A stretch of DNA of 64,000 nt. Source: Patescibacteria group bacterium (GTDB lineage Bacteria; Patescibacteriota; Minisyncoccia; Phycocordibacterales; JBBTRF01). Both the position numbers and the translations under genes were made by a program. The stretch spans positions 300,776 to 364,775 of the forward strand of contig JBBTRF010000001.1 in NCBI GenBank assembly GCA_038065315.1, in the 5' to 3' direction. This document shows, piece by piece, positions 6,665-62,949 of this stretch; within the stretch, counting starts at the first letter, position 1; each line of letters opens with the position of its first letter. The notes beneath the pieces are model-generated. The model was not told the DNA's origin and made no database searches. It saw only the letters and a program-made list of their open reading frames with translations.

Positions 6665-6748
6665 TCCTCAAGAAGTAAAACTCGCAGAAGTGTCGAAGTA
6701 TGGTATGGCATTCAACAGTAAAGCCGGTGTCCGCTGACATTTTCCCGT

Positions 6749-6800
6749 ACCCGCGGATTTTGCTTCCTTTTTGCATACTTTTGGAAGCAAAATCCGCGGG
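6749..6800. repeat. perfect 18-bp stem hairpin (CCCGCGGATTTTGCTTCC ... GGAAGCAAAATCCGCGGG) between tRNA-Cys and tRNA-Leu
   Basis: An exact inverted repeat with a ~15-nt loop. There is no trailing T-tract on either strand. Confidence 0.6.
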
Positions 6801-6871
6801 CACTCAAAATCACCGCGACACCCCCACTCGCCTCATCCTCGTATTCAAAAAATATGATACTCTAATAAAAA

Positions 6872-7411: not shown

Positions 7412-8215
7412 ATGGACCGGCGTGTGCCGAATCCTCTTTTCAAAACAACAACCCTCAACACAAGGAGGTCGACGGTGAACGCAACACTACCAGAAACAAC
7501 AAGGACGTCTGGCCAGGACACGAACCTGACAAGCAGTCGTCATCGCGGTCACAACAACACCAAACACACCGGCGGTATTCGGCAGAACAGCCGTGAACGC
7601 CGGTGGGCACAGCGACACGATTCCCTGCGCGCCACGATCCTCCAGAACTGCGGACTCATGCCGCTCACCGCAAGCGAAGCGGAGCAGCACAGGCTACAGG
7701 TGAAGCAGCAATTCTTCGCCGACCTCGCTGAATGGGTGCGGACGTCGCCGACGTTGGCTCGTCAACTCGCCATGAGCTGGAAGTTTCCGGCGATCATCAT
7801 GAGTCTCGGCTTCCTGCTCGGCTTGGCTTTTGGTAGCATGTTCGCTTGGGTTGGCCTGGCATCTGTGTATGCCTTTGGCGGCTGGTTGAAAGAGGCCATC
7901 AAGGAAGCCTCGGATACCAAGGCTTACCGCCATGAAGCGAGCACAAGAATCGCAGCTTACGCCAAGTGGAAGGTCGGGCAGAGTTGGACATGCAAACCCT
8001 ATGAGATGTTCCTCTTGCTATCAGCACTCAAAGCCCCCGAGAAACTCCAGCAGGCAGTGCTGAAGATCGAAGCTCGGCATCCAGATGCAGAGTTCGAGCT
8101 AGAGACCTTCGACGAAGACCCGATACTGTCGGTTCGGCGCCCGAAGATGACTGGCGGCTACGAACACTACGTGCTCGGCGCTTGGGGCCTGCCGGAGAAG
8201 TTCACGTTCCGCTGA
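7412..8215 (+). CDS. hypothetical protein with central TM segments (GC-rich)
   Basis: The track ORF (7379) starts at TTG. The first ATG is at 7412 (MDRRVPNP). The N-terminus is basic and Ser/Thr-rich. I recognise no domain. Confidence 0.35.
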   Translation: MDRRVPNPLFKTTTLNTRRSTVNATLPETTRTSGQDTNLTSSRHRGHNNTKHTGGIRQNSRERRWAQRHDSLRATILQNCGLMPLTASEAEQHRLQVKQQFFADLAEWVRTSPTLARQLAMSWKFPAIIMSLGFLLGLAFGSMFAWVGLASVYAFGGWLKEAIKEASDTKAYRHEASTRIAAYAKWKVGQSWTCKPYEMFLLLSALKAPEKLQQAVLKIEARHPDAEFELETFDEDPILSVRRPKMTGGYEHYVLGAWGLPEKFTFR

Positions 8216-8572: not shown

Positions 8573-8697
8573 GTACAGGTGCAAGCCGGAGGCATGTTTT
8601 GTCAGCAGGCAAAACAGCCGAGGCGGGGTCGAGGAAATTTCTGAGCGACGGCGAAGAAATTATCCGTGACCACTCAAATATGCTACGATACCCCTAT

Positions 8698-8821: not shown

Positions 8822-8945
8822 CAAAGCGGAGAGGACTTGAAAGCCGGAAGAAAAGCTTCGGGGAAGCTTTTCTGAGGCGGGGCCGAGAGGCTTCGAGCAC
8901 AGCGAGAAGAACTCGTGGCCAAGCCTCTCCCGCGCACCACTTGAC
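8822..8945 (+). repeat. tRNA-Leu-derived remnant / tRNA-like element
   Basis: Contains an inverted copy of the tRNA-Leu T-arm (GCGGAGAGGACTTGAA), an 11-bp hairpin (AGAAAAGCTTC-GGGG-GAAGCTTTTCT), a second inverted repeat (GAGAGGCTT...AAGCCTCTC), and a direct copy of the tRNA 3' end (CCTCTCCCGCGCACCA). Confidence 0.5.
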
Positions 8946-11086: not shown

Positions 11087-11794
11087 ATGAGCTACCTCAT
11101 TGTAATACTGGCAATCATCGCCGGCGGCATTGCCGTCTGGAAGACCATCGGGTGGGCAAATCCGAGTGGTGCCTCTACAGCCACTAACCCACCAACCACC
11201 GGAGCAAATCCTGCGACCGGCGGCACAGCAGGCGCTCCCGCTACACCCACCGCCGCCGACATCAGGGCCGCAGCAGAAGCAGCCATCAGGCAACGGGTGG
11301 AGCTACGAAAGATCCAACTCAAGACCGCCGGCCTAGTCTGGAAGTGGGTCTGGAGTATCGGACTCCTCGCAAGCCTCGGCTTCGGCATCTGGGCCATCTG
11401 GATCCGTCCGCAAGCGAATGGCCTCACACCCTCGCAAGAGTTCGTGGCCAGCTCCGGAGCATCGGTAACGCCGCCCAAGGTCTCATACACCTTCGCGGCA
11501 TACAAGTCGGGCTCGAACGAAGAAATTCGTTGCCGAGCCTGGGTGCTCAACGAAGTGCGCGGCGACCACCCACACATGTGGTTCAGCGTCGAGCGCTTCA
11601 TGCAAGGCCGGCCTGTCGTCGTCCTCTACAAGTGGGACGGCCGAAAGAAAGCCGGCACTTGGGAGGACGAAGGCGATCGCACCCGCGGCGAGTTCACGGG
11701 CGACATCGACCCACGAGATCCGAACCGGTTCGCCGGGGAGATCTTTGCGGAAGGCACCACCTTCCGCTACTTCCTTCAACGGAAGATCGAATAG
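11087..11794 (+). CDS. hypothetical membrane protein (two TM, Thr/Pro/Gly-rich linker)
   Basis: An RBS-like AAACGGAG sits before the ATG. No domain recognised. Confidence 0.45.
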   Translation: MSYLIVILAIIAGGIAVWKTIGWANPSGASTATNPPTTGANPATGGTAGAPATPTAADIRAAAEAAIRQRVELRKIQLKTAGLVWKWVWSIGLLASLGFGIWAIWIRPQANGLTPSQEFVASSGASVTPPKVSYTFAAYKSGSNEEIRCRAWVLNEVRGDHPHMWFSVERFMQGRPVVVLYKWDGRKKAGTWEDEGDRTRGEFTGDIDPRDPNRFAGEIFAEGTTFRYFLQRKIE

Positions 11795-11827
11795 TAGTGG
11801 TTGAGGCTCTACAGCCCCACCCCAACG

Positions 11828-11870
11828 CAAAGAGCGCGACACCCGGTTGGTGTTGCGCTCTTTTTTCTTT
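11828..11870. terminator. bidirectional terminator between convergent units
   Basis: AGAGCGCGACAC-ccggttgg-TGTTGCGCTCT, flanked by a T-tract on the + side. Confidence 0.55.
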
Positions 11871-11904
11871 GCCTTTATATTTTTTGCGGGATGGCCCGCA
11901 CTAC

Positions 11905-12162
11905 CTAGAACACTGAGACTCCGACCGTGGCGCCAATGAGACTCACAATGGCCTTGGCCGTCACCATGATCGCGAGACCGACAACCCCCCACGTCATGTG
12001 CCTCACCCCGAGTGCTCGCGCATCTTCATTGTCAGCGCCTCTCACGTATTGGAACACGCCCCAGAGGAAGACAAGGAAGGCGACGGCGTATGCCAGCTTC
12101 AGCACCGGATTGACCACTGCTTCTGCGAGCTTTGAAATCAATGAGTCGGTGGCGCTGGACAC
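11905..12162 (-). CDS. VirB2/TrbC-like (T4SS-type) pilin-like protein, short paralog P1 (no signal peptide)
   Basis: 85 aa, GTG start. Carries the conserved core FLWGVFQYVRGADNEDARA...WGVVGLAIMVTAKAIVSLI shared with four upstream paralogs. Confidence 0.5.
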   Translation of the reverse strand: MSSATDSLISKLAEAVVNPVLKLAYAVAFLVFLWGVFQYVRGADNEDARALGVRHMTWGVVGLAIMVTAKAIVSLIGATVGVSVF

Positions 12163-12183
12163 GGGATATATACAGTGACTGAA

Positions 12184-12564
12184 TTACTGGAGAGTGTCTA
12201 AGGTTGGTGCTGTCAGACCCTGTTCTTCTAAGTTAAACGTCTTTTTTAACAAAGTCACGAGTCCGTACACAGAGACCATCACGAAGATTCCGACAATACC
12301 GTACAAGATAGTGCTCTTCGCCTTTTCTTTCTTCTCCTCGTCGTCACCCATGATCACATACTGGAGTACCCCATAGAGGAAATACACAACGGCACAAGCA
12401 ATAAGAAAGGGTACTGCATAGTCTAGGAATGAACGGAATAATTGCGCAATGCCACCAAGACCTTGGGTTGTATTTTCAAAGTCGGTACTCACTGCCGCAA
12501 ACACCGAAATCGGAGCCATGAGAGCAGCCGCTGCTGCTGACATTCCGTAAAAAAGCTTTTTCAT
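12184..12564 (-). CDS. VirB2/TrbC-like pilin-like protein, paralog P2 (signal peptide)
   Basis: Starts at the internal ATG (MKKLFYGMSAAAAALMAPISVFAA), which reads as a signal peptide. Core: YFLYGVLQYVIMGDDEEKKEKAKSTILYGIVGIFVMVSVYGLVTLL. Confidence 0.6.
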   Translation of the reverse strand: MKKLFYGMSAAAAALMAPISVFAAVSTDFENTTQGLGGIAQLFRSFLDYAVPFLIACAVVYFLYGVLQYVIMGDDEEKKEKAKSTILYGIVGIFVMVSVYGLVTLLKKTFNLEEQGLTAPTLDTLQ

Positions 12565-12701
12565 ACGTAAAATTGAATAAACTGCTGATAATAAAGTAAT
12601 ACACTTCTTAAAGGCAAAGATATTACCTCCCGACATTATACCAGCCCCTAGAATGGCGACAAACCAAGGGTGTGGACAGGCAGACCGGAGCGCCGCGGCG
12701 G

Positions 12702-12965
12702 CTAGAACCCAACAAAAAAGGTATTGATCACCAAGCGCACCAATCCCCACACGGAAAACATCACGGCCAAGCCGATGATGCCGTAGATCATCATATCCCT
12801 GCCCTCTTTCACTTTGTCCTCACTGGCACCGGCCAAAATATACTTCTGTACACCATAGAGAAAGGCGACAATCGCGGTAGCAAACAATAGGGGTGCCAAA
12901 GTACCGCCAATAATGTCGTACAAGACATCGATGAAGTCTTTGAAATCGGTGACGCCGTTGAGCAT
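12702..12965 (-). CDS. VirB2/TrbC-like pilin-like protein, short paralog P3 (no signal peptide)
   Basis: 87 aa. Core: AFLYGVQKYILAGASEDKVKEGRDMMIYGIIGLAVMFSVWGLVRLV. Lies 5 nt after the stop of P4. Confidence 0.5.
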   Translation of the reverse strand: MLNGVTDFKDFIDVLYDIIGGTLAPLLFATAIVAFLYGVQKYILAGASEDKVKEGRDMMIYGIIGLAVMFSVWGLVRLVINTFFVGF

Positions 12966-12970
12966 GAATG

Positions 12971-13369
12971 TTAGATATTACTGACGCTCTTCACTGTATT
13001 CTCAATAATCCTCGCGATGATCTCCGCACTAAGCAGCACAGCAGTACCCACCGCCGCCCACTTGAGGGTGCCGTGCGCCTTGCCCACCTTTTCCTCATCA
13101 CCCTGCGCGGTCACATACAAAAAGCCGCCGTAGATGAAGTAGAGCACTGCGATGATGGCGCCGAGGCGACTCACCAGCTTTAGGATATCGGCAAGGAGAT
13201 CTTCGATAGAGTTTGCCTTGAGCGGATTGGAGAAACTGAGAGCTTCGTTTGTGACCGACGCATGGACCAATGGTACAGCAACAGTGAGAAGTACTCCGGC
13301 CACCAAACAATGCGCCATGAGTTTCTTGAAGATAGGTTTGAACTGCCTCGTGTGTGAGAAGTATTTCAT
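12971..13369 (-). CDS. VirB2/TrbC-like pilin-like protein, paralog P4 (signal peptide)
   Basis: 132 aa with an N-terminal signal/TM (LVAGVLLTVAVPLVHA). Core: YFIYGGFLYVTAQGDEEKVGKAHGTLKWAAVGTAVLLSAEII. Confidence 0.6.
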   Translation of the reverse strand: MKYFSHTRQFKPIFKKLMAHCLVAGVLLTVAVPLVHASVTNEALSFSNPLKANSIEDLLADILKLVSRLGAIIAVLYFIYGGFLYVTAQGDEEKVGKAHGTLKWAAVGTAVLLSAEIIARIIENTVKSVSNI

Positions 13370-19394: not shown

Positions 19395-22300
19395 TTACAA
19401 ACACACCGCGCTCGCCAATGTGTCACCATCTCGCAGGCGCATAATACGTACGCCTTGGGTCTGTCGGCCGAGGACCGGAATCTCCTTGATATCGCAGCGG
19501 ATGACCTGGCTCTTTTTGGAGATGGCCACGAGCTCGTTGGCACCATCACCGACCTCGCCTTCTTTCACCTCCTTGGCAGCCGCAGCCACATCCACCACGC
19601 TCGAAGTGATGACCTTGCCGGTCTTGTCGGTGATTTTCGCGGTCAAAATACCGGAGCCGCCGCGCTTCTGCACCTTGTATTCGGAGAGCTCAGTCTGCTT
19701 GCCGTAGCCGTTGCTCATGATCACGAGCAGTGCTGGCTTTTTCATATCCTTCTTCACCACATCGGCACCAATGACGGTGTCGCCCTTTTCGAGACGCATC
19801 GCAATGACACCCATGGCTGCGCGGCCCATTTCGCGGATATCGGTTTCCTTGAATCGGATCGACTGACCTTCGCTGGTCGCAAGGATCACCTCATCGCCCT
19901 TCTCGACAAATCGTACCGACACGAGACTATCGCCAGACTCCAGACCGATAGCGATGAGGCCACTTCGTCGAACATCGTGGAAGGTTTCGGCATTCACCTT
20001 CTTGCCCACGCCATTTTTGGTGATCATGAAGAGACTGAGACCGCTTTTCTTCACCTCCTTCGGCATCGGGAGAATCGAGGTGACGCGTTCGTCGTCGGCC
20101 AGTGCCAAAAAGTTTACGATTGACTTGCCCTTGGTCGCGCGCTTGCCTTCAGGGATCTCGTACATCTTGATCTGGTACGCCTTGCCCTTGTTCGTGAAGA
20201 ACAGCATGTCCGCATGCGTGTTCGCATTCAAAATATGGGTGATGAAATCCTCTTCTTTCGTATCGAGATCCACCACACCTACACCGCCGCGCTTCTGTCG
20301 GCGATACTCGTCTGGCAAGGTACGCTTGATGTAGCCACCCGCAGTGAACACGAGCACAGAGTCCACGTCTGGGATGGTGTCCTCAGGCTTAAATTCCTTC
20401 ACACCTCCACGGATGACCTTGGTGCGTCGCTCGTCGCCATATTTTGCACGCACTTCGAGCAGTTCTTTCTTGATCACCGCCAAAATCTTCTTCGCGCTCG
20501 AGAGCAAATCCTTGAGCTCGCGAATGAGCGCCTGCACAGCGTTGAGTTCGTCTTCAATCTTCTGTCGTTCGAGGCCCGCGAGACGCGACAGCTTCATTTC
20601 CAAAATAGCAGTCGCCTGGCGGTCGGAGAATTTGAAGGTCTTCATCAAATTGAGATGCGCCTCCGGGGTGTCCTTCGACTTTTTGATCAATTTAATGATC
20701 TCGTCGATATGGTCGAGCGCTTTCTTGAGGCCGAGCAAAATATGCTCACGGTCTTCAGCCTTGCGGAGGTCAAATTCGGTGCGACGACGCACCACCACCT
20801 GTCGATGCTTAATGAATTCCTCGAGCACGCTCTTGAGCGAGAGTGTCTGCGGCACGCCGTCCACGAGGGCAACGGTGTTGAAGTGGAACGTATCTTCGAG
20901 CTGTGTGTGTTTATACAAAAAGTTCAGCACGGCCTGTGGGAAAGCACCCTGCTTGAGGTCGATCACCACGCGAATGTCTTTCGTAGACTCGTCTCGGAGG
21001 CCCTTGATACCTTCGACCTTCTTCTCGCGAACGAGGTCGGCGATGGTCAAAATAAGGTCGGCTTTGTTCACTCGATATGGGATCGAGGTGATGATAATCT
21101 GGAACGAGCCGTTCTTAGTCTCCACGATTTCCGCTTCGCCGCGCACCACCACGCCGCCGCGGCCAGTGGTATACGCATGCTTCATTTCGGCAGAAGCGTA
21201 CAGCATCGCGCCAGTCGGGAAATCCGGACCCTTCACAAATTGCAAAAGGTCTTCCGCAGAAGCATCGGAGTTGTCGATGAGATGCGTGGTCGCATCCACC
21301 ACTTCGCCGAGATTGTGCGGCGGAATGTTGGTCGCCATACCGACGGCGATACCAAGGGTGCCGTTCAAAAGGAGATTCGGGACAGCAGCCGGCAGCACGC
21401 CCGGCTCTTTTCGAGTGTTTTCGTAGTTTGGTCGGAAGTCGACAGTGTCTTTCTCAATATCCTGGAGCATCACGGTCGAGATGCGCGCCATCTTCGCCTC
21501 AGTGTATCGTTCTGCCGCGGCGCCGTCACCGTCGATTGAGTTGTGCACGAATACGCCCGCCGCCAGCGCAAAATTGTGGCTTACCGGCACAGTGAGGTCG
21601 TATACATCTTCGCGTTCGCCTGAGAATTCAACGCGAGAAACTTTGTGGTTTCCCACGAGCTCAACCGTAAGTCGGTCGAGATTAGAACCGTAATATTTAC
21701 TGAAACCAACCTCCCATGAAGTGGCCGACCTGTACGGGTACACCTTCGGACGAAATTCTTCGTAAGTCTCCTTGGAAAGCGGTACACCCTTCTCGATCAA
21801 TTTCTTGCAAACCGTGTCGAATTTCTTCTTCCCGGTCTTGTTTGTGGTGTGATTTTTGTTTCCCTTGATGATCCGCGCGTGCATCTCTTGGCGATACGCC
21901 TCATCCTGCCACAAACGCTTCAAGGTCTTGGTTGCGCGAGCCGAAAGTTCCAGACGCTTTTCTGGATGAGCTGCAATGTACTCAAGATTCACTCGACTGA
22001 GCGTCTCGATCATCTGCGCACGGTATTCAGGATTCTGCCAATTCTGCTTATTCCTTTCCGACATCGCCTGGCTATACTGCTCTTTTACGCCAGCCTTTGC
22101 ACGAAACGCCTTTCTACCTTCCGCAAGCTTCTTTACGTACTCGGGATCATTTTTATGTCGGCCAGCAGTCAGTTCGGAATGAAGTCTCCAATGATCGATC
22201 CATTGCATTCGCTGGATATTTTCTGGACTATTGTTGCCTTTATTAAAATCGACATGATGTCGGACCTTGCCGGCTGACTTGGCATATTTACCAATAGAAA

Positions 22301-23141
22301 TGTTGAGGGCATCGGCCAAATGATGCGCATACTCCCAAGTATTATCGAGAGGTTGGTAGATCATCTCGTATCCAACCATATCCGAAAGTGCACTTTCTCC
22401 TTTTTCAGAAAGACGGCTGTACAAAGGCATCAATGATTCACCTGGCTTTAGATATTGCGCCTCTTTATAATCCTGATTCTTCAGAAGGAATTTGTGGTTT
22501 AGCGTACATTTGATCTCTTTTCCATTGTCGAGCACCACCTTCATGATCTCAGCGTCCTTAATCGTCAGTCGCGGCTTTATCAATTGAGCAATTTCCACCT
22601 TTCCCTCTTTTGAAACAGTGAAGGTGTAATTTTTCTTGCCCTTCTTGTCCTCATTGATGAGTTCACCAAAAGAAAGATTGCGCCCATCAGCGAGTCGAAC
22701 TTCCGTATCTTTTGTAAAACAACCGAAGTTACCCTGGCCGATGATCAGCGGGTATCGAATCGAAAAATCCTGCGCCATCTTCACCATAGATTCATACACC
22801 GCGACGTTGCCGTGCGGGTGATATTTTCCGAGCACGTCTCCCACCACCGCCGCAGACTTTCGCGTCTTCGCGCTCGCCACCAGGCCCATCTCGTGCATTG
22901 CATACAAGATACGTCGGTGCACCGGCTTCAAACCGTCGCGCACGTCAGGCAGGGCTCGCGCAGTGATCACGGACATCGCGTAGTCCAAATACGAGTCGCG
23001 CATTTCGGTAGTGATGCTGCGACTCACCACGTTCTCGCGTGCAGGCAAAGCCGACGCCTCTGATGCGCCACTTTTTCCGCCCTTATCGCTTTTGCCTTCG
23101 CTGCCGCCCTTTGGCTTCTTGTCTGAATCTTTAGATGACAT
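19395..23141 (-). CDS. gyrA: DNA gyrase subunit A, intein-containing precursor (1248 aa)
   Basis: N-extein ends ...IIGQGNFG and the C-extein resumes SIDGDGAAAERYTEAKM, with the active-site Tyr region intact. The rest is a normal GyrA, including the C-terminal beta-pinwheel repeats. Confidence 0.95.
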   Translation of the reverse strand: MSSKDSDKKPKGGSEGKSDKGGKSGASEASALPARENVVSRSITTEMRDSYLDYAMSVITARALPDVRDGLKPVHRRILYAMHEMGLVASAKTRKSAAVVGDVLGKYHPHGNVAVYESMVKMAQDFSIRYPLIIGQGNFGCFTKDTEVRLADGRNLSFGELINEDKKGKKNYTFTVSKEGKVEIAQLIKPRLTIKDAEIMKVVLDNGKEIKCTLNHKFLLKNQDYKEAQYLKPGESLMPLYSRLSEKGESALSDMVGYEMIYQPLDNTWEYAHHLADALNISIGKYAKSAGKVRHHVDFNKGNNSPENIQRMQWIDHWRLHSELTAGRHKNDPEYVKKLAEGRKAFRAKAGVKEQYSQAMSERNKQNWQNPEYRAQMIETLSRVNLEYIAAHPEKRLELSARATKTLKRLWQDEAYRQEMHARIIKGNKNHTTNKTGKKKFDTVCKKLIEKGVPLSKETYEEFRPKVYPYRSATSWEVGFSKYYGSNLDRLTVELVGNHKVSRVEFSGEREDVYDLTVPVSHNFALAAGVFVHNSIDGDGAAAERYTEAKMARISTVMLQDIEKDTVDFRPNYENTRKEPGVLPAAVPNLLLNGTLGIAVGMATNIPPHNLGEVVDATTHLIDNSDASAEDLLQFVKGPDFPTGAMLYASAEMKHAYTTGRGGVVVRGEAEIVETKNGSFQIIITSIPYRVNKADLILTIADLVREKKVEGIKGLRDESTKDIRVVIDLKQGAFPQAVLNFLYKHTQLEDTFHFNTVALVDGVPQTLSLKSVLEEFIKHRQVVVRRRTEFDLRKAEDREHILLGLKKALDHIDEIIKLIKKSKDTPEAHLNLMKTFKFSDRQATAILEMKLSRLAGLERQKIEDELNAVQALIRELKDLLSSAKKILAVIKKELLEVRAKYGDERRTKVIRGGVKEFKPEDTIPDVDSVLVFTAGGYIKRTLPDEYRRQKRGGVGVVDLDTKEEDFITHILNANTHADMLFFTNKGKAYQIKMYEIPEGKRATKGKSIVNFLALADDERVTSILPMPKEVKKSGLSLFMITKNGVGKKVNAETFHDVRRSGLIAIGLESGDSLVSVRFVEKGDEVILATSEGQSIRFKETDIREMGRAAMGVIAMRLEKGDTVIGADVVKKDMKKPALLVIMSNGYGKQTELSEYKVQKRGGSGILTAKITDKTGKVITSSVVDVAAAAKEVKEGEVGDGANELVAISKKSQVIRCDIKEIPVLGRQTQGVRIMRLRDGDTLASAVCL
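21540..22721 (-). mobile_element. GyrA intein (394 aa) with HNH-type endonuclease domain
   Basis: Begins with Cys (CFTKDTEV...) and ends ...VFVHN, followed by a Ser. The internal HNH motif is HHVDFNKGNNSPENIQRMQWIDHWRLH. The insertion lies between GNFG and SIDGDG, about 10 aa before the catalytic Tyr. Confidence 0.85.
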
Positions 23142-25823: not shown

Positions 25824-26603
25824 CTAGGATTCAAGTTTCTTGCGAGCATCGCCAGCAATCGTCCCACCCTTCGTAGCCGCAACTTTATTTGGAACGAACC
25901 CTTGAGCATCAGTAGTTCGAGCAATTTCTGTGGTCGCCGCCTCACCGAGCATTGAAAAGATGAGTTCTAGGTCATTCATGTGATCACGAAGATTCTCTCG
26001 CTCGAGACCTTTTAGGGTTTTATACTCATTCGGCGTCATGCCAAAAGCCGCTTTTGATATCTCGGCGGTGAGAATAGCGTATTCATTTTGCTCTTTGACG
26101 CCTCGATTCTGCCACTCGTTGGTCAATTCTTCACGAATGGTAATACCCCTCATACGCTTTTCGATCCAGGCATCATCGTAGCCCTTAGCTTTATAAAGAG
26201 CGCGAGTGCGTTTTGTGGCAAGTTCAGGGTCTTCGATCTCCTTTATGCGTTCATAGCCTACAGTAGCCAACCAACGCTTAAATGGTTCGGCTTTGGGTGA
26301 AGGGACTGACTGGATAATGCGGAACAAGCCTTCGGCGTTGGCGCAGTCAGTTTCTCGCATCTTGCCATCAGGGGCCGGCAATTTCAACTGGTGACAAAAT
26401 GTCACCAGTTGACTCCCTTCGTCTTTCAGCCTTTGCGCGAGTTTATTCCAATATTTTCTCGCAGTGAGATCATCGACTTGATCGGTAAGCGCCTGCACTA
26501 CATCCACCACCGAAAACCACCACTCATTGTTGCGGATGATTTTTCGAATCTTCGTGCCCTTAAAGACGGCGATTTTACTGATTGGATTTAGATTTTCTGA
26601 CAT
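25824..26603 (-). CDS. Bro-N domain protein (phage antirepressor / DinD-like)
   Basis: Starts at MSENLNPISKIAVFKG. The Bro-N core is KIRKIIRNNEWWFSVVDVVQAL. The C-terminal half resembles the DinD/RhuM family. TGCTATACT lies ~36 nt upstream. Confidence 0.5.
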   Translation of the reverse strand: MSENLNPISKIAVFKGTKIRKIIRNNEWWFSVVDVVQALTDQVDDLTARKYWNKLAQRLKDEGSQLVTFCHQLKLPAPDGKMRETDCANAEGLFRIIQSVPSPKAEPFKRWLATVGYERIKEIEDPELATKRTRALYKAKGYDDAWIEKRMRGITIREELTNEWQNRGVKEQNEYAILTAEISKAAFGMTPNEYKTLKGLERENLRDHMNDLELIFSMLGEAATTEIARTTDAQGFVPNKVAATKGGTIAGDARKKLES

Positions 26604-26749
26604 TCTGTTATTTCTTATATCTTGCAGTAAAGCTAGTATAGCAAAATAGTGCTCAAGAAACATATAAAAAATGTTAAAGAAAAGCCTAAGAAAAGGTAAA
26701 GAAATTATGAAGAGAAGTCCTCATCACACATCTCTGCTATACTATCGTC

Positions 26750-46178: not shown

Positions 46179-46254
46179 GCTGGTACGTGGTTAGTTGGTG
46201 AGGGTAAGTATAGCAAGAGGAGGTGGAAATGTGCAAAGTCCCTCACAAGAAATC

Positions 46255-46845
46255 TTAGATACTATAGCCCATCTTTACAAACTCTCTTCCTAGACGCTCA
46301 AAATTACCCTGATCCTTTAAGTATTCTTTGACCATTTTTACCTGCCCCTTACCTATCAAATTTCTAATATTCTTATTACTCTGTAATTTAATTTCTGGAA
46401 ATGAAAATCTTGCATCTATTCCTTGCTCCCTATCAATGACATGGAAGTGTCTATCGTGATCACTACCATGTGGATATACCCTAAAAACAAAGCCCCTCAT
46501 CCTGCCACCTACACCCTTAACAAATGGTCCACTCCAACTGAGCGGAGTCTTATATTTTTGATCGAGCGCTAAATCTTCGTCACTCTTTGAATAATGAATA
46601 ATGCAGTACATTCCCTCCAATAAGCACTCATCTGCAACATCCACATAACCTTCAATTTCATCTTTTAACTGATTTCGGTTAAACTCTTTTTCACGGCGCA
46701 ACCTAAAGATCTCGGCTTTTTTTACATACCTTCTTAACTGAAACCTGAACAGAGACAGTATCAGCGCACGAACTAGTGTTCGCAGCGATTCTCTAAAATA
46801 TACCGCCAGGGAAATTAGCACGCAGAGTAGTAAAAACCAGTACAT
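46255..46845 (-). CDS. hypothetical membrane protein with DUF4160-like C-terminus (AT-rich gene)
   Basis: Starts at the internal Met (MYWFLLLCVLISLAVYF). The C-terminal DHDRHFHVIDREQGIDARFSFPEIK resembles DUF4160 (PHFH motif). The upstream part of the track ORF overlaps the conserved repeat element, so the start is trimmed. Confidence 0.35.
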   Translation of the reverse strand: MYWFLLLCVLISLAVYFRESLRTLVRALILSLFRFQLRRYVKKAEIFRLRREKEFNRNQLKDEIEGYVDVADECLLEGMYCIIHYSKSDEDLALDQKYKTPLSWSGPFVKGVGGRMRGFVFRVYPHGSDHDRHFHVIDREQGIDARFSFPEIKLQSNKNIRNLIGKGQVKMVKEYLKDQGNFERLGREFVKMGYSI

Positions 46846-46898
46846 AACAATTAGATTATTCCATCGATTAACAAATCTTTCAAACACACTCGATGAAT

Positions 46899-47046
46899 CG
46901 GTCCTTACAGGACCAGTACGGGTTTCCCATTTTCTCGGAGCAGAACTCCTCGAAAATATGGGAGAACCCTTTCGATTCTCAGACGCAAGTGCCTCAAGGC
47001 ACTTGCTTACCCGCACAAACAAAGCCCCTTTCGGGGCGTTTGTCGT
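46899..47046 (-). repeat. tRNA-adjacent conserved structured element, copy 1 (3' of tRNA-Gly)
   Basis: On the minus strand, 32 nt after the tRNA-Gly CCA, it begins GCGGGTA (identical to the tRNA-Gly 5' acceptor) + AG. Then comes hairpin GCAAGTGCC-TTGA-GGCACTTGC, a T-arm-like GAGAATCGAAAGGGTTCTC, and ~75 nt that is ~90% identical to copy 2 at 62699-62841, ending in hairpin GGTCCTGTAAGGACC. Confidence 0.7.
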
Positions 47047-47049
47047 TGG

Positions 47050-47120
47050 TGCGGGTACTGAGAATCGAACTCAGGTCTCAACCTTGGGAAGGTCGCATTC
47101 TACCACTAAACCATACCCGC
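47050..47120 (-). tRNA. tRNA-Gly (CCC), CCA encoded (47047-47049)
   Basis: The reverse complement GCGGGTATGGTTTAGTGGTAGAATGCGACCTTCCCAAGGTTG...CTGAGTTCGATTCTCAGTACCCGCACCA folds with anticodon CCC. It is followed by hairpin GCCCC-GAAA-GGGGC + TTTGTTTG. Confidence 0.85.
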
Positions 47121-50114: not shown

Positions 50115-50642
50115 TCAAACCAAACCATCAACCTCAAACCCAATCTTCTTTTTCGGCCCCTCCGGCGGATTGATCAACCGCTTCACTACAGAATACACAC
50201 TCGAAAGCTGATCACCATGCTCTTTCTGTTTTCTCTCAATTTCTTCGATCTTGTGGGCCAAATCAGTGTGCGTGGCCAGTACTTCCCGCATTTTGATAAA
50301 AGCTCGGACAATGAAGATACTCATCTGTACCGCTCGCTGGCTTTTCAGCACCGCAGAGAGCATGGCCACGCCGTGTTCGGTGAAGACGTAGGGTAGATAA
50401 CGGCTTCCTCCACGACCAATCTTTGAGGTTTCAATTTGAAACCTCAAAGATTGGCTCTCGTCCTTTGTTAATTGAAACATAAAATCCTCTGGAAACCTTT
50501 GAATATTTCGGCGCACTGCCAAGTTCAAACTTTTAGTGGGTATGCCGTATATTTCAGCCAAATCAAAGTCCACCATCACCCGCTGGCCGCGAATGATGTA
50601 AATTTTGTGTTCGACGACATTTTGTATCGCATCTTTTTCCAC
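50115..50642 (-). CDS. ORF6N (KilA-N-like) domain protein
   Basis: The classic ORF6N motif is IRGQRVMVDFDLAEIYGIPTKSLNLAVRRNIQRFPEDFMFQL...LRFQIETSKIGRGGSRYLPYVFTEHGVAML. It is often prophage-associated. Confidence 0.75.
   Translation of the reverse strand: MEKDAIQNVVEHKIYIIRGQRVMVDFDLAEIYGIPTKSLNLAVRRNIQRFPEDFMFQLTKDESQSLRFQIETSKIGRGGSRYLPYVFTEHGVAMLSAVLKSQRAVQMSIFIVRAFIKMREVLATHTDLAHKIEEIERKQKEHGDQLSSVYSVVKRLINPPEGPKKKIGFEVDGLV
50416..50454. repeat. 39-bp perfect palindrome inside the ORF6N CDS
   Basis: CCAATCTTTGAGGTTTCAA-T-TTGAAACCTCAAAGATTGG. It encodes SQSLRFQIETSKIG, the conserved ORF6N motif. Confidence 0.8.
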
Positions 50643-62647: not shown

Positions 62648-62698
62648 GATGTTATTCTTATCAATGATACGCGAATGGTTCTGGAACGTAAAGGGATT

Positions 62699-62862
62699 CG
62701 GTCCTTACAGGACCACCCTAGAAGCTTCGGTCCTTGCAGGACCAGTACGGGTTTCCCATTTTCTTGGAGCAAAGCTCCTCGAAAATATGGGAGAACCTTT
62801 TCGAATCCCTCACGCAGGCACTCAAGTGCCTGCTTCTTTCCTCCGTTCGCTCCGCTCACTGC
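62699..62862 (-). repeat. tRNA-adjacent conserved structured element, copy 2 (3' of tRNA-Ser)
   Basis: On the minus strand, 21 nt after tRNA-Ser, it begins GGAAAGA (identical to the tRNA-Ser 5' acceptor) + AG. Then hairpin GCAGGCAC-TTGA-GTGCCTGC (compensatory relative to copy 1), GAGGGATTCGAAAAGGTTCTC, the shared ~75-nt core, and the terminal hairpin GGTCCTGyAAGGACC present twice in tandem. Confidence 0.7.
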
Positions 62863-62949
62863 GGAAAGAGAGGGATTCGAACCCTCGATACCCTTTCGGA
62901 TATACAACCTTTCCAGGGTTGCCCATTCGACCGCTCTGGCATCTTTCCA
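62863..62949 (-). tRNA. tRNA-Ser (GGA), type II
   Basis: The reverse complement GGAAAGATGCCAGAGCGGTCGAATGGGCAACCCTGGAAAGGTTG (anticodon GGA), variable arm TATATCCGAAAGGGTATC, T-arm GAGGGTTCGAATCCCTC, acceptor TCTTTCC-G. Confidence 0.8.

Follow-up and report, generated by a model that had tools for sequence, protein, structure and literature searches.

The window, the whole stretch of 64,000 nucleotides of Patescibacteria DNA that was analysed, contains two copies of a structured element, both located on the - strand behind an intact tRNA gene. Copy 1 is a folded element of about 125 bases at positions 46895-47016 and follows a tRNA-Gly, which the preliminary description had labelled with CCA. 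This label fits only the encoded 3' end of the tRNA, and the anticodon is CCC. In the order of the tRNA strand, the features of copy 1 are:

47047-47120, - strand: tRNA-Gly(CCC), intact, with encoded CCA (identified by ARAGORN; Rfam tRNA, 66.7 bits)
47047-47067, - strand: positions 56-76 of tRNA-Gly, which in the model proposed below would be a replacement 3' end supplied by the element
47017-47046, - strand: spacer, holding a terminator-like hairpin and then TTTGTTTG
47024-47037, - strand: GC hairpin GCCCCGAAAGGGGC with a T-run in the spacer, similar to an intrinsic terminator
47008-47016, - strand: antisense segment A, GT+GCGGGTA, complementary to tRNA-Gly 66-74 (7/7 and 2/2)
46985-47006, - strand: hairpin 1, 9 bp with a TTGA loop, separated from segment A by one A
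46971-46982, - strand: antisense segment B, CTGAGAATCGAA, complementary to tRNA-Gly 54-65 (12/12)
46900-46970, - strand: conserved T-shaped core, defined by an alignment of 13 copies, RNAalifold and pair counts (covariance model, 135.9 bits)
46900-46914, - strand: hairpin 4 (GGUCC-UGUAA-GGACC), at the end of the core
46895-46900, - strand: CGATTC, a sense copy of tRNA-Gly 56-61, which represents a truncated right direct repeat

Segment A is complementary to the 3' acceptor strand, the discriminator and C74 of tRNA-Gly, and its GCGGGTA at 47008-47014 equals the 5' acceptor strand of the same tRNA. Segment B is separated from hairpin 1 by GT, and CTGAGAATCGAA is the exact reverse complement of the T-loop and the 3' T-stem. 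The core consists of a GGGUU/AACCC stem, hairpin 3, a linker GUACU and hairpin 4, where hairpin 3 has a variable apex and an internal loop of tandem G.A. The right repeat retains 6 of 19 nt, and its CGATTC pairs with GAATCG of segment B, thereby closing the core. A 21-mer of tRNA-Gly(CCC) is unique. The GC hairpin, the 9-bp TTGA hairpin and the order of the parts are present as they had been described. The T-arm-like hairpin of the preliminary description has a more mixed outcome, in that CTGAGAATCGAA is indeed the reverse complement of the T-arm, while the hairpin itself is not a conserved helix and its 5' half is the antisense segment. A closing helix GUGCGGGU/ACCCGUAC, obtained from a single-sequence fold of copy 1, is not conserved among the other copies, and a terminator formed by a "hairpin 2 plus U-run" is absent as a conserved feature from the Ser-type copies.

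Copy 2 is located at positions 62692-62843 on the - strand, behind tRNA-Ser(GGA). Its features are:

62861-62948, - strand: tRNA-Ser(GGA), intact (ARAGORN and Rfam)
62842-62860, - strand: spacer AGTGAGCGGAGCGAACGGA, with a UGAGC-N3-GCGAA mini-hairpin and identical to the spacer in locus L013
62835-62841, - strand: segment A, GGAAAGA, complementary to tRNA-Ser (7/7)
62814-62833, - strand: hairpin 1, 8 bp with a TTGA loop, within 62800-62841
62800-62811, - strand: segment B, GAGGGATTCGAA, complementary to tRNA-Ser (12/12)
62729-62799, - strand: conserved core with hairpin 4 at its end (covariance model, 131.1 bits)
62692-62728, - strand: tail, with a second hairpin 4 followed by a truncated right repeat
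62700-62714, - strand: the second copy of hairpin 4 in this tail
within the tail, after the second hairpin 4, - strand: CGAATCCCT, a sense copy of tRNA-Ser 56-64, the right repeat being cut to 9 nt

GGAAAGA is the 5' acceptor heptamer of tRNA-Ser, and GAGGGATTCGAA is the reverse complement of its T-loop and 3' T-stem. The region of copy 1 past segment B is near-identical to 62723-62843. A 27-mer shared by the two copies occurs exactly twice in the window, where zero occurrences are expected, and the second copy claimed for the element 3' of tRNA-Gly is thus real and on the - strand. The other nine tRNAs of the window lack the element, and a covariance-model search of the window found no third copy.

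As had been presumed, the element did not correspond to any known RNA family. Rfam searches of both copies, at the gathering score and at E ≤ 10, gave only tRNAs above threshold, and the best other matches on or overlapping the two elements reached 14-25 bits against gathering scores of 40-70. One match of 37.3 bits, against a gathering score of 68, falls within the tRNA-Ser gene, on the opposite strand. The same Rfam search of a second family, at the gathering score and at E ≤ 10, gave nothing. ARAGORN identified the upstream tRNAs only, with no tmRNA or permuted tmRNA, and the element is thus neither of these. The layouts of hammerhead, HDV-like and hairpin ribozymes, compared by eye, do not fit the three-way junction. 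No blastn match to the element was found in phage and plasmid collections, and viral contigs, scanned with three words from the element and one from the second family, gave zero true matches, as one 18-mer match and all 32 16-mer matches were chance occurrences in coding DNA. We found no described equivalent in the literature.

To collect further copies, exact-word scans were made of species-representative genomes, which gave five loci, all in Patescibacteria MAGs labelled as Parcubacteria, Paceibacterota or Saccharibacteria, and of metagenome contigs, where eight of the 11 matches were true loci and three were chance occurrences in coding DNA. After removal of duplicates, 13 distinct copies remained, two in the window and 11 beyond it. 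The further copies in relatives that the preliminary description asked for thus exist and are all from Patescibacteria; all copies so far come from Patescibacteria MAGs or metagenome contigs. The copies were retrieved by exact core words, and the conservation of the core is therefore partly an ascertainment effect. A covariance-model search of 203 kb gave one weak match, a diverged relative after tRNA-Lys (L010) that retains the invariant unpaired features but has different stems; the window itself gave neither an additional copy nor a more diverged one.

The size and layout of the unit are constant in the 13 copies, which come from different classes of Patescibacteria. The element always lies on the tRNA strand, directly downstream of the tRNA. 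It contains a first antisense segment of 7-9 nt against the 3' acceptor strand, then a hairpin of variable sequence, a second antisense segment of 12 nt, and a core of about 70-75 nt. The tRNA is known for 11 copies and is a Gly(CCC), Ser(GGA), Glu(CTC), Glu(TTC) or Arg(GCG). The 12-nt segment is antisense to the T-loop and 3' T-stem of whichever tRNA adjoins it, with 12/12 matches in eight of these 11 copies and 11/12 in the remaining three, where each mismatch is a G.U wobble. The 7-nt segment matches in 7/7 positions in nine of the 11, among them GGAAAGA of copy 2. The complementarity is 2 nt longer in tRNAs with A73, covering the discriminator and C74. The heptamer had been taken as a copy of the tRNA's own 5' acceptor arm, and GCGGGTA does equal that strand. 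However, the copies at tRNA-Glu carry GACCCTA, which is the Watson-Crick complement of the 3' strand TAGGGTC and differs from the 5' strand GGCCCTA, where the tRNA has a G.U pair. This identifies the heptamer as an antisense of the 3' strand and not as a 5'-strand copy. The element-free tRNA-Glu of the window also shows a G.U pair in its acceptor stem.

The compensatory changes that had been reported between the hairpins of the two window copies were observed, and the covariation is strong across the 13 copies. In the alignment, 98.8% of the stem cells are paired, with double changes in 11 pairs. None of 500 shuffles reached these values, and shifted registers were only 29-58% paired, which agrees with the earlier claim of selection on the secondary structure of a single strand rather than on protein. 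In the RNAalifold consensus of the 13 copies, hairpins 1 and 4 reappear, as does the GGGUU/AACCC stem together with hairpin 3. Hairpin 1 has 11 different stems in the 13 copies and retains its pairing in all of them, with five of six scored pairs covarying, and copy 2 of the window and its close relative L013 are exactly one compensated pair apart in this hairpin. G.U pairs are far more common than A.C pairs, which are nearly absent, showing that the tRNA-sense strand is the folding strand. For the undecayed unit in L016, the fold has an energy of -74.1 kcal/mol (z = -9.3). It comprises an acceptor-like stem of 7 bp, the side hairpin, an extended T-like stem of 9 bp and a three-way junction from which two hairpins branch. 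Three unpaired features are invariant, namely the internal loop of tandem G.A, the linker GUACU and the UGUAA loop. The tandem G.A, CGAAAG and G.U pairs are motifs that characterise RNA and folded DNA to the same degree.

The apex of hairpin 3 varies in length by 8, 18 and 28 nt among the copies. The hairpin 3 region is identical in copy 1 of the window, at tRNA-Gly, and a Saccharibacteria copy at tRNA-Glu (L003), and the TTGA loop is common to copy 1 and the Ser copies. The other Gly copies have a different variant of hairpin 3 and a CTGC loop. This pattern of sharing indicates that one scaffold bears different tRNA modules and that one tRNA is served by different scaffolds. The spacers also belong to the element; they are similar across different tRNAs, and the Ser spacer in L009 is nearly the same as the Gly spacer in L012. 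Terminators are located between the tRNA and the element in the spacers of copy 1 of the window and L001, and the element has no promoter of its own. According to the GC skew, the folding strand is on the lagging-strand template. This placement is weakly compatible with a single-strand model, tRNA genes being usually oriented in this way.

Past hairpin 4, every copy has a sense copy of the tRNA from C56 onwards. This right repeat of tRNA 56-74 is perfect (19/19 nt) in L004, L008, L012 and L016 and near-perfect in L013, and it is abruptly shortened to 5-12 nt in the remaining copies, including the 6 and 9 nt in the window. Seven copies retain intact antisense segments and an intact core beside a shortened right repeat. 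The elements are 156-190 nt in size and without an ORF, the cleanest unit being 156 nt. Two identical tandem units with a period of 156 nt, bounded by three perfect repeats, are present in L012/L015, which are from the same organism, and L008 has a partial second unit and a remnant of a third repeat. The homology that the window shares with L008, L009, L012 and L016 stops at the end of hairpin 4. The host flank past the last repeat is common to L012 and L016.

The order lepA-divIC-tRNA-Gly-(variable)-grx-tRNA-Arg-tRNA-Phe is syntenic among relatives. The site at tRNA-Gly is occupied in the window, L008, L012 and L016, and empty in L023, where grx follows 18 nt after tRNA-Gly. In L019, tRNA-Gly is followed by a decayed remnant, which retains the spacer, a degenerate heptamer, half of hairpin 1 and nine bases of the 12-mer with the core deleted, and then by three ORFans. 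Four other relatives lack tRNA-Gly(CCC) at the locus. Further downstream of copy 1, the window contains:

46855-46883, - strand: promoter-like site of the following ORFan, its own
46255-46845, - strand: ORFan of 196 aa, between the element and the candidate displaced tRNA end
46194-46207, - strand: candidate displaced 3' end of tRNA-Gly, TTACCCTCACCAAC (12/14), 16 nt before the start codon of the glutaredoxin gene (grx)

The position of the candidate at 46194-46207 corresponds to that of the tRNA in the empty-site relative L023. Together with the 12/14 repeat, this indicates that the element and the 196-aa ORFan are inserted DNA. A distant right repeat of this kind was sought in the other loci and was found in none of them, making copy 1 of the window the sole exception. 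A split tRNA gene that is restored by the inserted DNA, with a displaced fragment marking its end, is the signature of tRNA-gene islands (PMC4383910). The two window copies are probably older insertions, with right repeats cut to 6 and 9 nt. At other loci, a restriction-modification pair is located to the right of the element in L009, and two small ORFs lie between the tRNA and the element in L004.

On balance, the element is probably a miniature, ORF-less and site-specific insertion in the 3' part of tRNA genes. A complete unit, on this reading, consists of a replacement for tRNA 56-74, a spacer of 20-35 nt, a segment antisense to 74-66, the variable hairpin, a segment antisense to 65-54, and the two-hairpin core. 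Placed inside the 3' part of the tRNA, such a unit would leave the tRNA intact and displace the original 3' part to the right as a direct repeat. When the tRNA-sense strand is single-stranded, the antisense segments would pair with the sense copy. The result would be an acceptor/T stem like that of a tRNA, bearing a side hairpin and topped by the T-shaped core. Such a fold, having the same sequence as the target, may be the recombination site, and a hypothetical partner enzyme encoded elsewhere would swap strands within the shared 19 nt. Candidate enzymes are an HUH-type nuclease and a tyrosine recombinase, the latter acting as it does on integron attC sites and on the attP hairpin of CTX phage. 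Since the unit contains only structure, the structure would itself be the mobility determinant, and the spacer terminators in two copies together with the lack of an own promoter favour a role at the DNA level. The antisense arm covers almost the same stretch as the repeat (56-74), and the order beside the junction of repeat, spacer, antisense arm, apex of about 90 nt and sense arm matches that of integron cassettes with attC and of the integrated CTX phage. In CTX phage and integrons, the duplex target is imitated by a folded single strand, and one pair of strands is exchanged by a recombinase that is encoded elsewhere (PMC5027507, PMC3442271).

Some observations speak against this insertion model. 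No partner enzyme turned up in or beside the copies, and no excised form was seen. A new tRNA specificity requires that the sense and antisense modules change together, and the intact antisense segments beside the lost right repeat in seven copies could mean a function in place, for example as RNA. A second integration is not required for the tandem units, which unequal crossing-over of the repeats could also have produced. The exact antisense arm beside a cut-back repeat possibly reflects selection for an RNA role, a deletion bias that trims useless DNA, or template-switch correction of the inverted repeat with reference to the constrained copy in the tRNA. The latter is a known replication process, which corrects imperfect inverted repeats and could keep an antisense arm exact.

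The preliminary description had suggested a tRNA-linked small RNA, a processing element of the tRNA 3' trailer, or the footprint of a tRNA-targeting mobile or recombination system. The last of these fits best because of the direct repeats, the tandem units, the empty site, the remnant and the several tRNA targets, and a small RNA from the tRNA trailer comes second. Such a functional small RNA, transcribed by read-through from the tRNA promoter, with mobility being only the way in which its gene spread, is a possible but doubtful explanation. It may be a tRNA-like acceptor/T minihelix that is cut by RNase P and RNase Z and receives CCA, or its antisense segments may pair with the 3' half of their own tRNA as a guide, sensor or sponge. 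The constant position of the element on the tRNA strand, immediately downstream, agrees with such a role, as do the RNA-typical motifs, the strand-specific folding, the structure in L004 that ends with a perfect acceptor strand and ACCA, and the fact that all three mismatches in the 12-mer are G.U wobbles. The antisense segments are also exact despite the loss of the right repeat in seven copies, although this exactness may equally be maintained by template-switch correction. Against a small RNA are the terminator hairpins that precede the element in copy 1 of the window and in L001, the lack of an own promoter, and the dispensability of the element, which is missing in L023 and decayed in L019. 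Furthermore, most copies lack the 3' acceptor strand and hence a minihelix, and pairing with a folded tRNA would require the tRNA to be unfolded. It is unlikely that the element is instead a guide RNA for an RNA-guided recombinase or transposase encoded elsewhere, with antisense segments that pick out the tRNA gene and a core that serves as a protein scaffold, in the manner of an IS110 bridge RNA or a TIGR stem-loop guide. Two guide-like segments do surround a stem-loop, the modules for specificity can be exchanged while the scaffold is conserved, the repeat 56-74 is nearly coextensive with the stretch covered by the antisense segments, and RNA-guided systems of this general architecture occur in Patescibacteria (PMC12045711). 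However, both segments read a contiguous stretch of a single DNA strand, unlike bridge RNAs and tigRNAs, which read both (PMC11208160, PMC12045711), box C (RUGAUGA) is present in 0/13 copies, there is no DEDD, IS110 or Nop-domain protein near the copies, and the 19-nt repeat is unlike the 2-nt core duplication of IS110.

We consider it very unlikely that the element is an inert leftover, formed by the two att arms of integrase-borne islands at the tRNA whose interior was later lost. The 3' ends of the tRNAs are hot spots for accessory DNA, as seen from the ORFan in the window and from L019, L009 and L004, and the candidate distant repeat at 46194-46207 also speaks for such an origin. Nevertheless, the same size and layout recur in 13 copies across classes of Patescibacteria, the stems covary while the loops are invariant, and undecayed copies, one of them tandem, are without any interior. 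Classical integrase att arms are not known to have covarying hairpins or an antisense copy of the core. The idea that the element is the end of a protein-coding gene, either for the + strand peptide QDQYGFPIF... or for the - strand ORF at 46255-47022, draws on the long ORFs that traverse it on both strands and has almost no probability left. The length differences of 8, 18 and 28 nt at the apex break every frame, an indel pattern that already refutes a coding function and that bears out the earlier view of the + strand peptide as a by-product. In addition, the + strand ORF passes through the tRNA gene, the substitutions compensate for pairing, and the downstream ORFan starts after the element with its own promoter.

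tRNA genes are classic landing sites of mobile DNA, known for large occupants that bring an integrase of their own. In the present case, a fold of 156 nt makes up the entire occupant; it copies its target twice, in sense and in antisense, and has been re-fitted to at least four tRNAs. As an extension of the insertion model, we tentatively raise the idea, which has no great likelihood at present, of a protein-less mobile unit that chooses its integration site by base pairing, with a core that recruits the enzyme and with modules that can be swapped on one scaffold. The antisense segments, as RNA or single-stranded DNA, may then recognise the 3' part of the chosen tRNA gene. If the antisense copy does define the target, the reduced genomes of Patescibacteria would harbour a compact system in which base pairing chooses the site, and the partner enzyme would be a candidate programmable recombinase or nuclease. 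The whole would then represent an as yet undescribed kind of integration system, one that mimics tRNA and is programmable by nature. Even as a passive hitch-hiker, the element explains the recurrent tRNA-fragment look-alikes beside tRNA genes of these genomes and marks integration hot spots.

Among known systems, the tRNA-gene islands of tyrosine integrases with a crossover in the T-loop (Islander, PMC4383910) are similar in that both insert in the 3' part of a tRNA and restore the gene, share a direct repeat of about 20 nt from the T-loop, and are polymorphic in their presence among relatives. A displaced fragment as used by Islander is represented by the 19-nt repeats in L004, L008, L012 and L016, and by only 6 and 9 nt plus the 12/14 candidate in the window. 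Presence and absence are both observed, with L023 empty, L019 a remnant, and the window, L008, L012 and L016 occupied. The integrase is missing, as the units of 156-190 nt contain no ORF and no recombinase was found in the neighbouring ORFs or in the 40 window ORFs. The element differs further from the islands by its internal antisense copy of the repeat, split by a hairpin, by its covarying two-hairpin core, by its occurrence in identical tandem units, and by a scaffold that is found on at least four different tRNAs. We file it as a variant of the tRNA-gene insertions; it has the repeat and the polymorphism and lacks the integrase. More broadly, a Pfam search of 60 ORFs, comprising the neighbouring ORFs and the 40 largest of the window, gave no recombinase, reverse transcriptase or HUH protein, no neighbouring protein is conserved across the copies, and no excised form was seen. 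A MITE is also a poor description of the element, as no terminal inverted repeats are present in the sequences read, the repeat is 19 nt of tRNA sequence, and instead of many copies the window has only two, each with its own tRNA-specific segments.

The integron attC and the CTX-phage attP(+) (PMC5027507, PMC3442271) share with the element the order of repeat, payload, antisense arm, loop of about 90 nt and sense arm, as well as a stem that is conserved in structure over sequence, a single folding strand, arrays, gene-less units and, in the proposed model, an enzyme located elsewhere. Folding of the attC kind is evident in the antisense and sense arms, the covarying hairpins and the strand-specific G.U pairs. 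However, the arms are tRNA sequence rather than R''/R' sites (RYYYAAC/GTTRRRY), R/L boxes are absent, and no IntI or other integrase was found in the window or the loci. The stem is identical to the target and changes with the tRNA, and the variable loop at the apex gives way to a highly conserved core. A Xer-type system like that of CTX, with its dif-like XerCD sites, probably does not fit, as the stem is tRNA 56-74 and the target is a tRNA gene rather than dif. The bridge RNA of IS110, the tigRNA of TIGR systems and the box C/D guides (PMC11208160, PMC12045711) share two guide-like segments, a stem-loop, a scaffold and modular specificity. Compared with bridge RNAs, the element has a single pair of segments, both antisense to one strand, and a long direct repeat, and no gene for the DEDD (RuvC-like) recombinase of IS110 is located beside any copy. 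As for box C/D and TIGR guides, RUGAUGA is found in 0/13 copies, and CUGA in only two, at non-homologous places.

The HUH transposons (IS200/IS605, REP/RAYT, IS91 and Helitron) also have hairpin ends and small non-autonomous derivatives, and IS608 pairs its target with an internal guide. The element differs in that it carries a copy of the target, which these transposons are not known to do, and no HUH gene was seen. Its left junction can be read as lying between GTTC and G, the position being ambiguous within the 19-nt identity, and GTTC is the target of IS91. Finally, the element resembles tRNA-like structures, such as the tmRNA domain, viral 3' ends and mascRNA, in that the undecayed unit has a 7-bp acceptor-like stem on a T-like stem, a discriminator and, in the L004 unit, also CCA. 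It differs from these in that the core replaces the T-loop, that it matches no tRNA or tmRNA model, and that it is present in multiple, tRNA-specific copies.

A second conserved structured trailer family, unrelated to the element, was found behind tRNA-Lys(CTT) and tRNA-Leu(TAG) in the window and behind tRNA-Lys(TTT) of another genome (locus L010). The copy behind tRNA-Leu follows the same plan as the element, in that an antisense segment is followed by a two-hairpin core and a sense repeat of the tRNA end:

Window 8574-8672 (+), second-family copy
Window 8826-8939 (+), second-family copy, behind tRNA-Leu
Window 8828-8841 (+), its antisense segment, GGAGAGGACTTGAA
Window 8924-8939 (+), after its core, sense repeat of the tRNA-Leu 3' end, 16 nt, exact, CCA included
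L010 7400-7512 (-), second-family copy

Covariation was seen in both hairpins of this family, and a search of Rfam gave no match to it. The copy in L010 directly abuts a diverged relative of the element behind the same tRNA-Lys(TTT) (7512-7620, -), which retains the GUAC linker and the UGUAA loop and has different stems. In the trailer of tRNA-Cys (window 6668-6870, +), the words AAAGCCGG and CCCGTAC, which are also present in both trailer families, come before a long, perfectly paired hairpin, CCGCGGATTTTGCTTCC...GGAAGCAAAATCCGCGG.

Within the element family, a mini-hairpin with tandem G.A pairs, UGAGC-N3-GCGAA, occurs at two separate sites, namely in the spacers between tRNA and element of window copy 2, L013 and L002, and at the apex of hairpin 3 in L002, L004 and L005. 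In L008, a partial second unit located 3' of the first (1960-2020, +) ends abruptly within hairpin 1, and is joined to a third, slightly mutated repeat of the tRNA end (CTTGGCACCCACAC). The partial unit together with the third repeat points to a tandem array that later suffered a deletion. Copy 2 in the window contains two copies of hairpin 4, the last hairpin of the core, placed 14 nt apart (62700-62743, -), which may be all that an internal deletion left of an earlier tandem pair.

Two features lie between the element behind tRNA-Gly and the glutaredoxin gene:

Window 46255-46845 (-), ORFan of 196 aa, between the element and the tRNA-Gly 3'-end copy listed next
Window 46194-46207 (-), copy of the tRNA-Gly 3' end (12/14), just before the glutaredoxin gene

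Because relatives hold other ORFans or nothing at this spot, it is an integration hot spot. In L009, the element is followed immediately by genes for a restriction endonuclease of the TdeIII type and an adenine methyltransferase of class D12 (11405-13343, +), and synteny with the window ends exactly at this gene pair.

Elsewhere, the window encodes Bro-N and ORF6N, which are regulator domains of phage type, as well as a protein resembling type IV secretion pilins:

Window 25824-26663 (-), 50115-50642 (-) and 12184-12750 (-)

No recombinase was found adjoining these genes in the window. The GyrA gene (19395-23141, -) contains an intein, with an Intein_splicing domain located within the topoisomerase domain.
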